Source: a virus
Taxonomy: Duplodnaviria; Heunggongvirae; Uroviricota; Caudoviricetes
Strand: one strand, 5' to 3'
Length of the DNA stretch: 36,905 nt
IMG/VR virus record: IMGVR_UViG_2645727604_000018
The number at the start of each line of letters is the position of its first letter. Positions within the stretch are counted from its first letter, which is position 1. Made by a program: the position numbers. Shown here piece after piece: positions 6,001 through 9,000 of this stretch.

Positions 6001-9000
6001 TAATAAACCTACTATCTCTAATATTCAACTTTGGTCTAAATGGTAATGGGGTGAAATATATAACTCCCCAGTTTCTAATTTCAGTATGATCTATTCTTTC
6101 ACCGCTAGAGTTTAATATTGTACAATCGCCTGTTAATTGCATGTTATTTTTAGGAAAGAAATAGTTAATTATGCTACATAAGGATTTTGTCTTCCCTGAA
6201 CCATTTATACCAATAAGTAAAGATAAAGAATCCATATCATAAATATTAATATCATTAGCACTATTATTTCTTAGTTTAATTTTAGTGCCATTTGTTGTGA
6301 TTTCACTAATCATAATTTTCCTTTGATACTATCTTTGAATAAGATGGGGGCATTCAAGATCCATGTGAAATAAAACATAACAAAATCTTGTTCATATTGC
6401 AATTGATAATCATCTGTAATTTTATGATCTAAAATTTGGTTTGACGAAGTTTATTTTTGACGAGTTAAATTGATTATTTTTAGGGAGGACATCCATACCG
6501 CTCTCTGACTCTAATTGAACTCGCTTAGGACGGCTTGGGAAACGCTTGATCTCATTAGGTGTTAATTTATAGTTACTATCGTTAAATTTGGTACGTTTTT
6601 CAAACTCTGAGCGTGGAACATTGACACCCAGCACTTCATCATAGACATAGTTCTCTGCGATACGCTTATCATGGTCAGCATCAGTGGTATCGGGTTTCAT
6701 TCTGGCCCATATAAATTTCTCTCTTATATATCCTACTATCAGTAGCGTGAAACGTTTAAACAAACCATTCTGGCGGGGCTTGGTCTGTTTCCTACTCCTC
6801 ACAGGAGCACGCTTCATCGCTCTGGTGTTTTGAGAAGAAGGGTTTTTCAGTTTAGTGGATTTATTTGGTTCAGGTGCAACCAGAACAGGGGATTTCTTAG
6901 CTGCAGCACCAACTTTACTGACCTTATTGGGGGCATGGTAAGATTTTACGGCTGGTCTTCTGTATGGTTCTGACTCTGCATGAATCGGTTGCTGCTTTGT
7001 TGTTGCCGGGTAGTCAGGGAGAACGATCTCTTCCGGTTCAGGAAGCTGGTAAACAGAGTAAGAGCGAACATCAACAACGATTTCCAGTGGTAGCTCACTG
7101 AATGTGGCGTAGACCTTCTTTGCTTCCTCAATTTGATGATCGCGTTGAGCTTGTTCAGCAGCTCGTTGTTCCTGAGACTCGGTATCATTCCATTTAGCAC
7201 GATGAACACGCTGCATTGCCGGGCGGTTTGTTTCCGTTGCTTTGGCAAGCCAGAATGCTTTCTCTTCAGCACTGAATGCTTCTTCTGCCTGAGCAAGGGC
7301 ATCAGCACATTGAGTTCTGAGAGAACGGTGATCGATACGTTCTTCACTGCCTGCGGCTTCAAGGTAGCTGTTTGACATCGTGGCCCACGACTCACGCCAC
7401 TGAACAACCATCTTCTTATCATTCCAAGTTCTGTCTTTTTTACCGAAGCCTTCGGGCCCGATGGTTTTCAGGGTTAACATGACGTGAGCGTGTGGGTTCT
7501 TACTGTCTAAGTCATGGAATGCGATATCAGCAATCATTCCTTTATCAACAAAGTTCTTCTGGCAGTATTCGGCAACCAATTTTTCTTGTCATCATTGTTG
7601 AGTTCTACGGGAATAGCGACATCAAAATAACGGGCTGTTTGACCGTTGTTCTGGCGTTCCACTCTTTCAACTTCATTCCAGAGTGCTGAGGAGCTTTCAA
7701 TAATATGAGCAGGTGCGGAAACGGGCGCTAATATAATATGACCATGAAGATCTGTTCTGTGGCTGAAATCAAATGTTTCGCCAATGCGATCATCTGTAAT
7801 ACGTGTACGGGCATGGTAGGCAGCTTTCGCAACGGAAGTCATGCCCTCGCTTCGTTTCACAATTTTAAAATCCAGATGGAAAATCGCCATTAAAAATATA
7901 ACCTCAAATAAAAATGCTGCTGTTAGTTTTTCGCCAGAAAAACTTCGGGGTTGACGTTGACCTTGGTTTTGCTTTTAGCCTGCGGCAGGCAACCGTCGGT
8001 AGACCCCACACACTGCGTAGCAGTGTATAGGTGGGCATTGTCTTTAAGAAAATAAGCCAATGTAAAATGCCCCTCTTATTAATTAATACGAAATATATGT
8101 ATGGTTGTAAAATAATACGCCGGGTTAAGCGGCGCAAACTGGATTAAAGGTGTAGGTTTCACGTCCACAGGACAAAAAGAGTAAAGAAAAGGCCCGTAAG
8201 GGCAATAGAAGTATTAATTATTCCCGCCGTAAGGCGGGATAGCTAAATTTGATGAAAAAAAACTAATAAAACAGAGAGTGTTATGTGTTGCACAATTTAC
8301 AGGTTGAGATTGGAAAATAGAGTTTAAAATTGACAGGTGAAAATAAAAGCACAAATGCGTAAAAATAAGTAACGCGGAGAGTGCCAGATGTTTTTGGTTA
8401 GTGAATACTATCATATGCGTTGCACATATTTATAAAGAAATGTATCAGAATCATTCTCTCTAACAAAATGGTGTAAATTTGACGTTATTTCTCTTTGTGA
8501 TAATTAAATACGTGTAAACAACAAGAGGTGATAACTATGGATGATAATATAAAAAGACCAAGAACAGAAAAAACATTAAAGCAAAAGGTTGCTTTTGCTC
8601 AGCTTGAACTTAACCGCCTTAAGTCTCTGGAGAAATCAGAACGAAAGAAAGTTGAAACAAGGCTAAAGATTATACTTGGTGCGGAAGTAGCTAAAGCTAT
8701 GCATTGCGATATCGAACAGGTGGATAAAGAACTCGTTATGGGGATTTTGCTTTCAGCATCTGACCTGAATGATATTGAAAAAATAACATATATAAAAGCA
8801 GGCAGGAAGTTTCTCGCGCAAATGGAGGGAAGACAAAAATAAAAATCTTTAAATTTATTTTGAGTCAGGTATTGATATCTGATTATTATCTGTTATCTAT
8901 ATAAAAGAACAGAACGCAGGATAATCCTTTATTAATATTTTTTCCTTTTCAATCATGCGTTCTGTTCGACCAGTAATCTGTTAATTTTTATCTTTATGTA

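Follow-up and report, generated by a model that had tools for sequence, protein, structure and literature searches.

We consider it likely that the region 6422..8842 of the window (the whole stretch of DNA analyzed, 36,905 nucleotides) is the mobilization module of an EARL/ROD21-like island whose mobQ gene was lost by a recent, ordinary homopolymer mutation and not as a designed feature. The module is of the MOBQ type, and the reading frame of its relaxase is interrupted after the catalytic Tyr and before the His triad. The island family has already been published together with its relaxase/TraD and pilin genes, and the copy studied here is nearly a clone of one member, IE3.

A MOBQ relaxase gene in two fragments

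The relaxase gene and its parts are as follows:
6422..7890, minus strand: mobQ pseudogene, a MOBQ (MobA/MobL) relaxase of 489 aa when repaired
7534..7890, minus strand: N-terminal mobQ fragment, 118 aa, starting MAIFHLDF and bearing AAYHAR with the catalytic Tyr25
6422..7579, minus strand: C-terminal mobQ fragment, 385 aa, containing NPHAHVMLT and the remainder of the protein
7580..7584, minus strand: frameshift site, T5 on the plus strand (A5 coding) against six in intact alleles

A first, sequence-only reading had described a relaxase frame split at 7534..7579 whose halves both keep diagnostic motifs, and on both points it was right. Two minus-strand ORFs overlap in exactly that interval, through loss of 1 nt from a T-run, and the N-terminal one closes with the out-of-frame tail NWLPNTARRTLLIKE and a stop. 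AAYHAR lies on one fragment and NPHAHVMLT on the other; no uninterrupted frame joins the Tyr and His motifs, the break falling at 7580..7584, so that the gene as assembled is a pseudogene.

The MOBQ assignment also stood up to profile searches. The two fragments match Pfam MobA_MobL (PF03389, cut-off 26.7 bits) at 78.8 and 94.6 bits, covering adjoining stretches of the profile (3-89 and 88-218 of 224), and the 489-aa protein obtained by restoring one base matches the whole NCBIfam MobQ profile (NF041496) at 252.1 bits, against a cut-off of 200 bits. Among PDB entries the product matches 4HT4 (NES, E=9e-25) and 2NS6 (MobA, E=1.8e-9). Tyr25 is unchanging across our alignment A1, and its aligned counterparts are Tyr25 in MobA and residue 25 in NES. 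The metal-binding motif of the C-terminal fragment (H126, D127, N132-P-H134-A-H136) aligns with the same motif in both structures, and H126, D127, N132, P133, H134 and H136 are likewise unchanging in A1. RSF1010/R1162 MobA and pLW1043 NES thus share with this MobQ the relaxase fold family, Tyr25 and the His triad. The relaxase domain occupies residues 1 to ~200 of the repaired protein; profile searches assigned the long C-terminal part to no known family, and by none of the profiles is this half a primase, unlike in archetypal MOBQ systems.

The transfer origin and the divergent small gene

The 637-bp spacer on the upstream side of mobQ and the gene beyond it contain these features:
7925..7944: 8-bp inverted repeat AGTTTTTC-gcca-GAAAAACT, between oriT and the mobQ start
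7978..7990: 13-bp perfect palindrome GCCTGCGGCAGGC, adjoining the oriT hairpin
8001..8043, plus strand: oriT core, comprising a hairpin and a nick-region-like box, recognized by conservation and covariation
8537..8842, plus strand: traD, 101 aa, Ti-plasmid-type TraD, divergent from mobQ

The perfect inverted repeat at 8010..8026, noticed earlier as lying where an oriT is expected, is on comparative evidence the core of a real oriT kept by selection. It forms an inner hairpin (8010..8016/8020..8026) that is a perfect 7+3+7 repeat, ACACTGC gta GCAGTGT; an outer stem pairs 8005..8009 with 8031..8035, and the MOBQ-like nick-region-like box ATAGGTGGGCATT adjoins the hairpin at 8027..8039. Both the position and the pairing are conserved. 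Every Enterobacterales relative with a motif match has the hairpin 138-203 bp upstream of mobQ, and for the related loci, more than 60 of them, the distance is 140-200 bp; over 26 sequence variants of the stem 96.5% of cells are paired, with compensatory two-sided changes at 6 of the 11 pairs. The covariation score of 0.335 was reached by none of 500 shuffles, and slid controls gave at most 0.108. As DNA the element folds at -11.3 kcal/mol (z=-4.0). The spacer holds four overlapping perfect inverted-repeat matches, which amount to three distinct hairpins where shuffles lead one to expect 0.3; this enrichment, together with the stem covariation, excludes a chance origin of the hairpin. A 7-bp repeat standing alone would carry no significance.

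With its TAAGTG-type box after the hairpin, the locus recalls the oriT of RSF1010/R1162, the nick box being GGGCATT here and GCGCCCT in the RSF1010/R1162 type. Relative to the MOBQ oriT consensus core TAAGTGCGCCCT (quoted in PMC3832669), the corresponding segment here (TAGGTGGGCATT) has 8/12 matches, and the small-plasmid relatives have 9/12. By analogy, we predict the nick near 8035/8036 on the plus strand; nicking itself, its position, the strand cut and the direction of transfer are all inferred in this way. Another possible nick site, at 8116..8136 on the minus strand (TGCGCCGCT, terminator-like), was set aside, being not conserved in Klebsiella and small-plasmid relatives, unlike the AATGCCC-hairpin block, which is. 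The palindrome, kept in most relatives, is a candidate protein-binding site, and the 8-bp inverted repeat, conserved in our alignment A3, a candidate operator. An Rfam search of 7800..9300 gave no match near threshold, and a structured sRNA in the conserved spacer found no support, the RNA consensus fold consisting of only two small hairpins with little covariation.

The small gene across the spacer had been called MobC-like. The gene exists and is divergent, as described, and its family is TraD: the product matches Pfam PF06412 at 41.8 bits (cut-off 22.3) over profile positions 2-61 of 62. This was the sole Pfam match even at E<=1, none being to MobC, and there was no NCBIfam match, so the profile searches rule out a MobC identity. 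We place its start at the ATG at 8537, as in the annotation of relatives, rather than at the GTG at 8528. The annotations of E2348/69 and STEC1575 carry the TraD label, and almost every related locus has a TraD homologue upstream of mobQ in divergent orientation. TraD is presumed to be a relaxosome accessory protein or regulator, and is at most a functional analogue of the MobC that, with MobB, serves as accessory protein in archetypal MOBQ systems.

Two known systems share this divergent layout. In the Dtr region of Ti plasmids (traA - oriT - traCDG), as here, a MOBQ domain faces, across oriT, an operon that runs the other way and includes a TraD of PF06412, and NCBIfam TraA_Ti scores 173.6 bits over aa 1-240 of the repaired MobQ, below its full-length cut-off. 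Unlike the Ti-plasmid Dtr, the island has neither a TraA helicase domain nor a TraG coupling protein nor a recognizable TraC; it also lacks the small 85-aa gene found ahead of traD in the Yersinia and Pectobacterium relatives. Small Enterobacteriaceae MOBQ plasmids of 3.4-4.1 kb (e.g. pSTW0522-26-3, NZ_AP022392.1) carry the closest plasmid relaxases, 42-55% identical over the domain, and share with the island the divergent traD and the oriT architecture AATGCCC...hairpin. They differ in being autonomous replicons without integrase or pilin genes. Their hairpins differ from that of the island by compensatory changes, and cross-recognition with the island oriT is therefore uncertain.

Island context and the pilin genes

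The remaining genes that define the island are:
9240..9797, plus strand: pilS, type IVb major prepilin, matching Pfam PilS PF08805 (1.7e-28), N_methyl and Bundlin
9850..11313, plus strand: pilV, shufflon-type pilus tip adhesin homologue, matching Pfam Shufflon_N PF04917
14534..15745, minus strand: internal second integrase of the serU-island type, full length
17902..19236, minus strand: P4-like tyrosine integrase (EARL-type), with Arm-DNA-bind_3, Phage_int_M and Phage_integrase domains
19350..19425: tRNA-Asn, adjoining the P4-like integrase

Over 18.8 kb (656..19449) the window is 99.87% identical in nucleotide sequence to island IE3 of EPEC O127:H6 E2348/69, with gene order unchanged: defence cargo, mobQ, oriT, traD, pilS, pilV, two integrases and tRNA-Asn. 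The two copies differ in their insertion site, a tRNA-Asn by mtfA/serU for the window copy and one by yeeO for IE3. The core of the EARL (ROD21-like) islands has been described as relaxase and TraD, pilin and PilV, and integrase and RDF, with integration at Asn-tRNA genes and no T4SS (PMC6035254); excision of IE3 has been proven by PCR (Pina-Iturbe et al. 2018, PMC6035254). In the window we find the Asn-tRNA site with a P4-like integrase, a MobA/MobL relaxase with TraD, and a type IV pilin with the pilus-related group. Neither the island ORFs nor the annotations of E2348/69 and STEC1575 include a T4SS or coupling protein. These sequence traits place the element among the EARL/ROD21-like integrative mobilizable islands, a published family, as a near-clone of IE3. 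In other Enterobacterales, 57 chromosomal loci carry the same gene set. The EARL islands ROD21 (Salmonella Enteritidis) and ICEKp258.2 (K. pneumoniae ST258) likewise combine relaxase and TraD, pilin and PilV-like protein, and P4-like integrase and RDF at an Asn-tRNA gene; their cargo differs from that of the window, and their relaxase is intact.

The contig begins with a fragment of an IS3-family transposase, and the left part of the island falls outside it. A search of the window for the other att repeat, a further copy of the tRNA 3' end, found none, and the AlpA-type RDF and the adjacent gene of ~843 bp, both present in IE3, belong to the far end of the island, beyond the contig. PGAP labels the internal integrase of E2348/69 as a pseudogene; we do not carry this label over, as the window copy reads in one full-length frame against the intact STEC1575 integrase (97.5% identity, residues 3-406).

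The pilin genes reported next to the module are indeed there, and had been taken to suggest an integrated mobilizable plasmid or ICE remnant. In its fuller form this explanation has an ICE or integrated conjugative plasmid losing its pilus and secretion genes, with pilS and pilV left over, and it draws on the resemblance of the two genes to those of IncI-type thin-pilus operons. We judge it extremely unlikely. The compact mobQ-oriT-traD-pilS/pilV arrangement, without assembly or T4SS genes, is kept at 43-68% protein identity in 33 loci, and the published EARL family has the same arrangement with pilS-pilV in its conserved core (PMC6035254); such conservation across many genera and in the EARL family indicates a stable design and not a relic. 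The plasmids with the nearest relaxases are mobilizable, not conjugative, and identity between PilV and its counterparts in pilus operons carried by plasmids, IncI2 among them, reaches only 25-28%; on this low figure we also rejected an IncI plasmid as source or helper. The element is thus better described as an EARL island near-identical to IE3.

Around pilS there are no pilus assembly genes, and neither a shufflon nor rci accompanies pilV. pilS is linked to traD in 19 related loci, and PilV homologues (43-68% identity) lie on the traD side in the 33 loci just mentioned; in the four relatives examined, no pilus assembly genes lie between traD and pilV. The nearest plasmid PilS proteins (45-49%) are on odd 30-45 kb plasmids that themselves have orphan pilins. 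Directly 3' of the predicted nick lies a conserved non-coding block of ~300 bp (8147..8441). It is conceivable, and in our view rather doubtful, that the orphan pilS/pilV pair is part of the mobilization strategy and that the block is a leading-region single-strand signal. The island-supplied pilin and tip adhesin may then join a helper's type IVb conjugative pilus and steer mating to suitable recipients, and the block may act in priming or early expression. A parallel is SGI1, which replaces mating-pair proteins of IncC plasmids.

Nature and consequences of the frameshift

Compared base by base with E2348/69 and with the intact STEC1575 allele, the lesion is one missing T (T6 to T5; A6 to A5 coding), and the repaired product exactly matches an intact protein, P0002, encoded on 82 other contigs. 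The exact 118-aa fragment occurs on only one draft WGS contig, JHSB01000055.1, the source of the present sequence, and A5 in this allele was not found among complete E. coli genomes. Over the 18.8 kb shared with E2348/69 there are two indels, both of them 1-nt A/T homopolymer contractions that break the gene they fall in. The second is at 12110, and a search of complete genomes with it gave no match, which may reflect the low-complexity filter. The indels and the singular fragment speak for the sequencing error that the first reading had allowed for, or for one of assembly, in which case the strain's mobQ would be intact as on the 82 contigs and the module fully functional; given a fragment unique to one draft contig and no complete genome with A5, an assembly error would look identical. 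We assign such an error a lesser though appreciable probability, for three reasons. First, the same comparison contains 22 substitutions, and two indels per 22 substitutions fits natural variation. Such a ratio is usual for bacteria, whose natural indels also cluster in homopolymers. Second, the lesion is genuine and inherited in a different lineage: an identical A-run frameshift is found in a mobQ allele ~15% divergent (226 aligned differences over ~1470 nt; loci L091-L096), on 16 contigs that include one complete chromosome and independent read sets. Third, the sister island of E2348/69 has also lost mobQ, by a separate mutation that turns the Tyr25 codon TAC into the stop TAG, which makes loss of mobQ in this lineage plausible.

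Several allelic backgrounds (P0016, P0017, P0027, P0028 and P0030) show the contraction from A6 to A5, marking the site as a hot spot, as might be expected if the A-run served for programmed slippage (ribosomal or transcriptional) that still yields full-length relaxase, or as a phase-variable on/off switch working by slipped-strand mispairing. We hold this to be very improbable. The run is short, at 5-6 nt, and its heptamer, G-AAA-AAT, does not match the canonical slippery sites. Across the family the run is poorly kept, being interrupted or absent in about half (its longest form is four A in 24 loci), and so is not a programmed site. Most mobQ copies are plainly intact, and in the 8 of ~57 species-representative loci where the gene is broken, this has happened variously, with copies other than the A-run cases broken at unrelated positions, as random decay predicts. 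We keep to ordinary mutation at a slippage-prone homopolymer as the probable cause of the loss. The earlier description of the module as decayed fits mobQ alone: one homopolymer indel is its sole lesion, and oriT, traD, pilS, pilV and both integrases are full length.

Judging from homologues, an intact island of this kind would excise by its own integrase and RDF. The MOBQ relaxase and the small TraD would bind the hairpin (8005..8035, plus strand), and the plus strand would be cut a few bases 3' of it through Tyr25, with the metal held by His126/His134/His136. The strand would then be exported by the secretion system of a co-resident conjugative element, traD-pilS-pilV entering first and mobQ last. 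In the present copy the A6 contraction parts Tyr25 from the His triad, and with these on separate fragments no active relaxase can arise in cis. The lesion leaves oriT, traD, both pil genes and the integrases whole, so that the island should be movable only where a matching relaxase is provided in trans or a route without a relaxase is open to it; lacking both, it would be immobilized. The role of the relaxase in island transfer is itself a presumption, because in the sole experimental test in the family, the low and pSLT-dependent transfer of ROD21, deletion of the relaxase left the frequency unchanged (PMC3976249).

The comparative evidence given here pins down the transfer origin of the EARL family and corrects the label of the small gene from MobC to TraD. 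The oriT of any EARL island appears to be undescribed so far in the EARL literature that we searched, and its location by comparison makes mobilization assays straightforward to design. The relaxase has been lost repeatedly: two near-identical islands carry lesions of independent origin, one homopolymer frameshift has recurred, and about one in seven species-representative copies is broken. Such repeated loss, while oriT and the pilin genes stay intact, suggests that islands of this kind, with their defence cargo, are often being locked in at their present sites.

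Relaxase gene and its frameshift

The mobQ gene is read on the minus strand as two open frames that share the overlap 7534..7579:

7534..7890, minus strand: N-terminal frame of mobQ, 118 aa, beginning MAIFHLDF and holding AAYHAR
6422..7579, minus strand: C-terminal frame of mobQ, 385 aa, holding NPHAHVMLT

The fragments match adjoining stretches of the Pfam MobA_MobL profile (3-89 and 88-218), and when one base is added back the resulting 489-aa protein scores 252 bits over the full length of the NCBIfam MobQ model (cut-off 200 bits). The relaxase domain aligns to the solved MOBQ relaxases NES (4HT4, E=9e-25) and MobA (2NS6, E=1.8e-9), which places Tyr25 at the catalytic tyrosine position and H126, H134 and H136 at the metal-binding histidines; none of the four varies across an alignment including seven relatives. 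These profiles and alignments uphold the MOBQ assignment made in the sequence-only reading. With the motifs on two frames, the break parts the nucleophile from the metal site, so that neither fragment can be catalytically active.

The window is the entire draft contig JHSB01000055.1 of GCA_001265765.1, and over 656..19449 it shares 99.87% identity with E. coli O127:H6 E2348/69, the differences being 22 substitutions and two indels. One indel is the frameshift that had been claimed: a T6 run is short of one T, leaving T5 at 7580..7584 (coding strand A6 to A5). The E2348/69 run is full length, but codon 25 is TAG rather than TAC, and on account of this internal stop PGAP annotates a pseudogene. 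The lesions differ, thus the same gene has been lost by separate mutations in two near-identical islands.

The A5 run may, alternatively, be an assembly error of the draft contig. The exact frameshifted fragment is found in this contig alone, no complete genome has A5 in this mobQ allele, and the other indel, at 12110, likewise shortens a homopolymer and splits a gene, and so bears on the question of homopolymer errors in the contig. (This second contraction, 1 nt of an A-run, splits a 284-aa hypothetical gene, 11784..12107 and 12092..12637, which adjoins an MvdC/MvdD-type ATP-grasp gene at 12627..13547.) The repaired protein exactly matches an intact one, P0002, found on 82 contigs. As to loss by mutation, four or more further allelic backgrounds share the out-of-frame tail DDKKNWLPNT...LLIKE*. 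One of them, P0027, is on 16 contigs, among them the complete chromosome CP045140.1 and assemblies from independent read sets; its gene and that of the window share A5 but differ at 226 aligned positions over ~1470 nt. The A-run is not continuous in roughly half of the mobQ family at large, and we therefore consider it a slippage hot spot rather than a programmed site. Broken mobQ copies occur in 8 of ~57 species-representative loci, at various positions, for example by a stop in Citrobacter.

Transfer origin and the adjoining traD gene

The mobQ-traD spacer has four perfect 7-bp hairpin matches (three distinct hairpins) where 0.3 are expected, and contains these features:

8010..8026: oriT inverted repeat, ACACTGC gta GCAGTGT
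7978..7990: 13-bp palindrome, conserved
7925..7944: 8-bp repeat

The first had been proposed as a candidate oriT, and its conserved position upstream of mobQ, stem covariation and stable fold bear this out. The oriT block lies 138-203 bp upstream of mobQ and reads AATGCCCAC-CTAT-hairpin-GTGGGG on the mobQ-sense strand. All Enterobacterales relatives with a motif match have it, in 26 distinct versions, on islands of Klebsiella, Yersinia, Pectobacterium, Enterobacter and others and also on 3.4-4.1 kb MOBQ plasmids. Stem variants differ by paired changes (ACACTGC/GCAGTGT, ACACTCG/CGAGTGT, ACATTGC/GCAATGT, ACGTCGC/GCGACGT, GCATTG/CAATGC). In a 16-sequence alignment, 96.5% of stem cells are paired and both sides have changed in 6 of 11 pairs; the covariation score is reached by none of 500 shuffles, and slid controls collapse. 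The + strand folds at -11.3 kcal/mol (z=-4.0). The oriT core is the same as in islands with intact relaxase. By analogy with R1162 and NES, the nick would lie near 8035/8036 on the + strand, in which case traD-pilS-pilV would enter the recipient first and mobQ last. Directly 3' of the hairpin on that strand is ATAGGTGGGCATT, where small plasmids carry ATAAGTGGGCATT; both resemble the MOBQ oriT consensus ...TAAGTGCGCCCT... quoted in PMC3832669. No oriT mapping for EARL (Enterobacteriaceae-associated ROD21-like) islands was found in the literature searched.

Between oriT and traD is a conserved non-coding block (8147..8441; 25 distinct sequences from many genera), in which CTCTCCGCGTTACTTATTTT and AACCTGTGAATTGTGCAACA are invariant and which carries two small hairpins, CCCGCC-TTAC-GGCGGG and GCCC-TTAC-GGGC, the latter with a compensatory GTCC/GGAC variant. 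The block has no match in Rfam, and its consensus fold is not extended. Given its place in the predicted leading region, it may serve as a single-strand signal (priming or promoter) or as a regulatory region.

The small gene divergent from mobQ had been likened to MobC. Its sole profile match is Ti-plasmid-type TraD (PF06412, 41.8 bits against a cut-off of 22.3), with the MobC profile silent; annotations of E2348/69 and of STEC1575, a strain with an intact mobQ allele, start it at the ATG at 8537. A TraD homologue diverges from mobQ across oriT in nearly all relatives, a layout mirroring traA-oriT-traCDG of Ti plasmids, and we infer a relaxosome accessory protein or regulator. Yersinia, Pectobacterium and Brenneria islands have upstream of traD a small gene of 85-98 aa lacking a family match (e.g. 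12636..12893 in locus L006, and many other loci), occupying the place of Ti traC; E. coli island copies are without it.

The island and its cargo

The corresponding island of E2348/69 is IE3, of the EARL family, whose conserved groups are relaxase with TraD, type IV pilin with a pilus-related protein, and integrase with RDF (PMC6035254). In the window, one end of the island is marked by:

17902..19236: P4-like integrase, adjoining tRNA-Asn
19350..19425: tRNA-Asn

Beyond this end lie mtfA, tRNA-Ser and a lambdoid prophage. The prophage (20559..36905; integrase, exonuclease, replisome organiser and others), inserted at tRNA-Ser 20417..20506, is ~97.6% identical to prophages of other E. coli. At the other end the contig begins within an IS3-family transposase fragment (1..655, rve domains), where E2348/69 similarity ends; the island's left portion, with RDF, RepL and others, therefore falls outside the window. 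The E2348/69 annotation gives the rest of the element as a DUF6387 gene, AlpA-like regulator, RepL, defence-type cargo, mobQ, traD, pilS, pilV and two integrases.

Of 5426 complete E. coli genomes, 809 have a match to the region, always on the chromosome. Scanning one genome per species placed the long-form relaxase at 57 chromosomal loci in many Enterobacterales genera, with PilV on the traD side in 33 and PilS in 19; four relatives examined have no pilus assembly genes between traD and pilV. The element is thus an EARL member and not the supposed remnant of an ICE or integrated plasmid. "Decayed" was too strong: one indel does break mobQ, but the module has no other damage within the window. 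Of the sequence-only reading, the relaxase, frameshift and oriT stand; the MobC label and the ICE or plasmid remnant do not.

Orphan pilus genes also occur on other non-conjugative replicons. On a 42-kb Klebsiella plasmid (NZ_CP030069.1) there are three genes for type 4 major pilins (47% identical to island PilS) and a DotA/TraY protein, and relatives of this plasmid have at least two PilS matches each; a 5.8-kb K. aerogenes plasmid (NZ_CP103670.1) has a pilV-like gene (34-36% identical) beside mobC.

The internal integrase is full length compared with STEC1575. Just downstream, a 289-bp segment (14231..14519) shares 92% identity with the 3' end of the integrase gene nearest the tRNA (17906..18194). 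This remnant of an earlier integrase suggests that the island is a mosaic of a serU-type and an Asn-tRNA-type element. Directly adjoining mobQ, an AAA ATPase (AAA_15/AAA_21) and HNH protein (3848..6313) match the PADLOC candidate defence pair PDC-M62 A/B and, more weakly, Septu PtuA/PtuB. Between the integrases, a GmrSD_N/DUF262 protein (PADLOC NsnA, 277 bits) and a RiboL-PSP HEPN protein (16004..17835) look like a small defence cassette.

Consequences for transfer

The island family is already known, and the window contains a near-clone of a published island; what is added is modest, namely an oriT defined by comparison and evidence that the relaxase is lost repeatedly. EARL islands, without a T4SS, are considered mobilisable (PMC6035254; also PMC10763509, PMC10655114), and PCR has demonstrated IE3 excision (PMC6035254). 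Transfer has been put to experiment in one family member only: that of ROD21 (~1e-8) required the F-like plasmid pSLT, and relaxase deletion left the frequency unchanged (PMC3976249); any relaxase contribution is therefore putative, as is the true helper. A related small plasmid could be a relaxase source, with cross-recognition uncertain because the hairpins differ. An island with intact oriT could in principle be moved by the matching relaxase of another copy, since some complete E. coli genomes hold up to three copies of the region and Enterobacter adelaidei has three loci in the one-genome-per-species scan.
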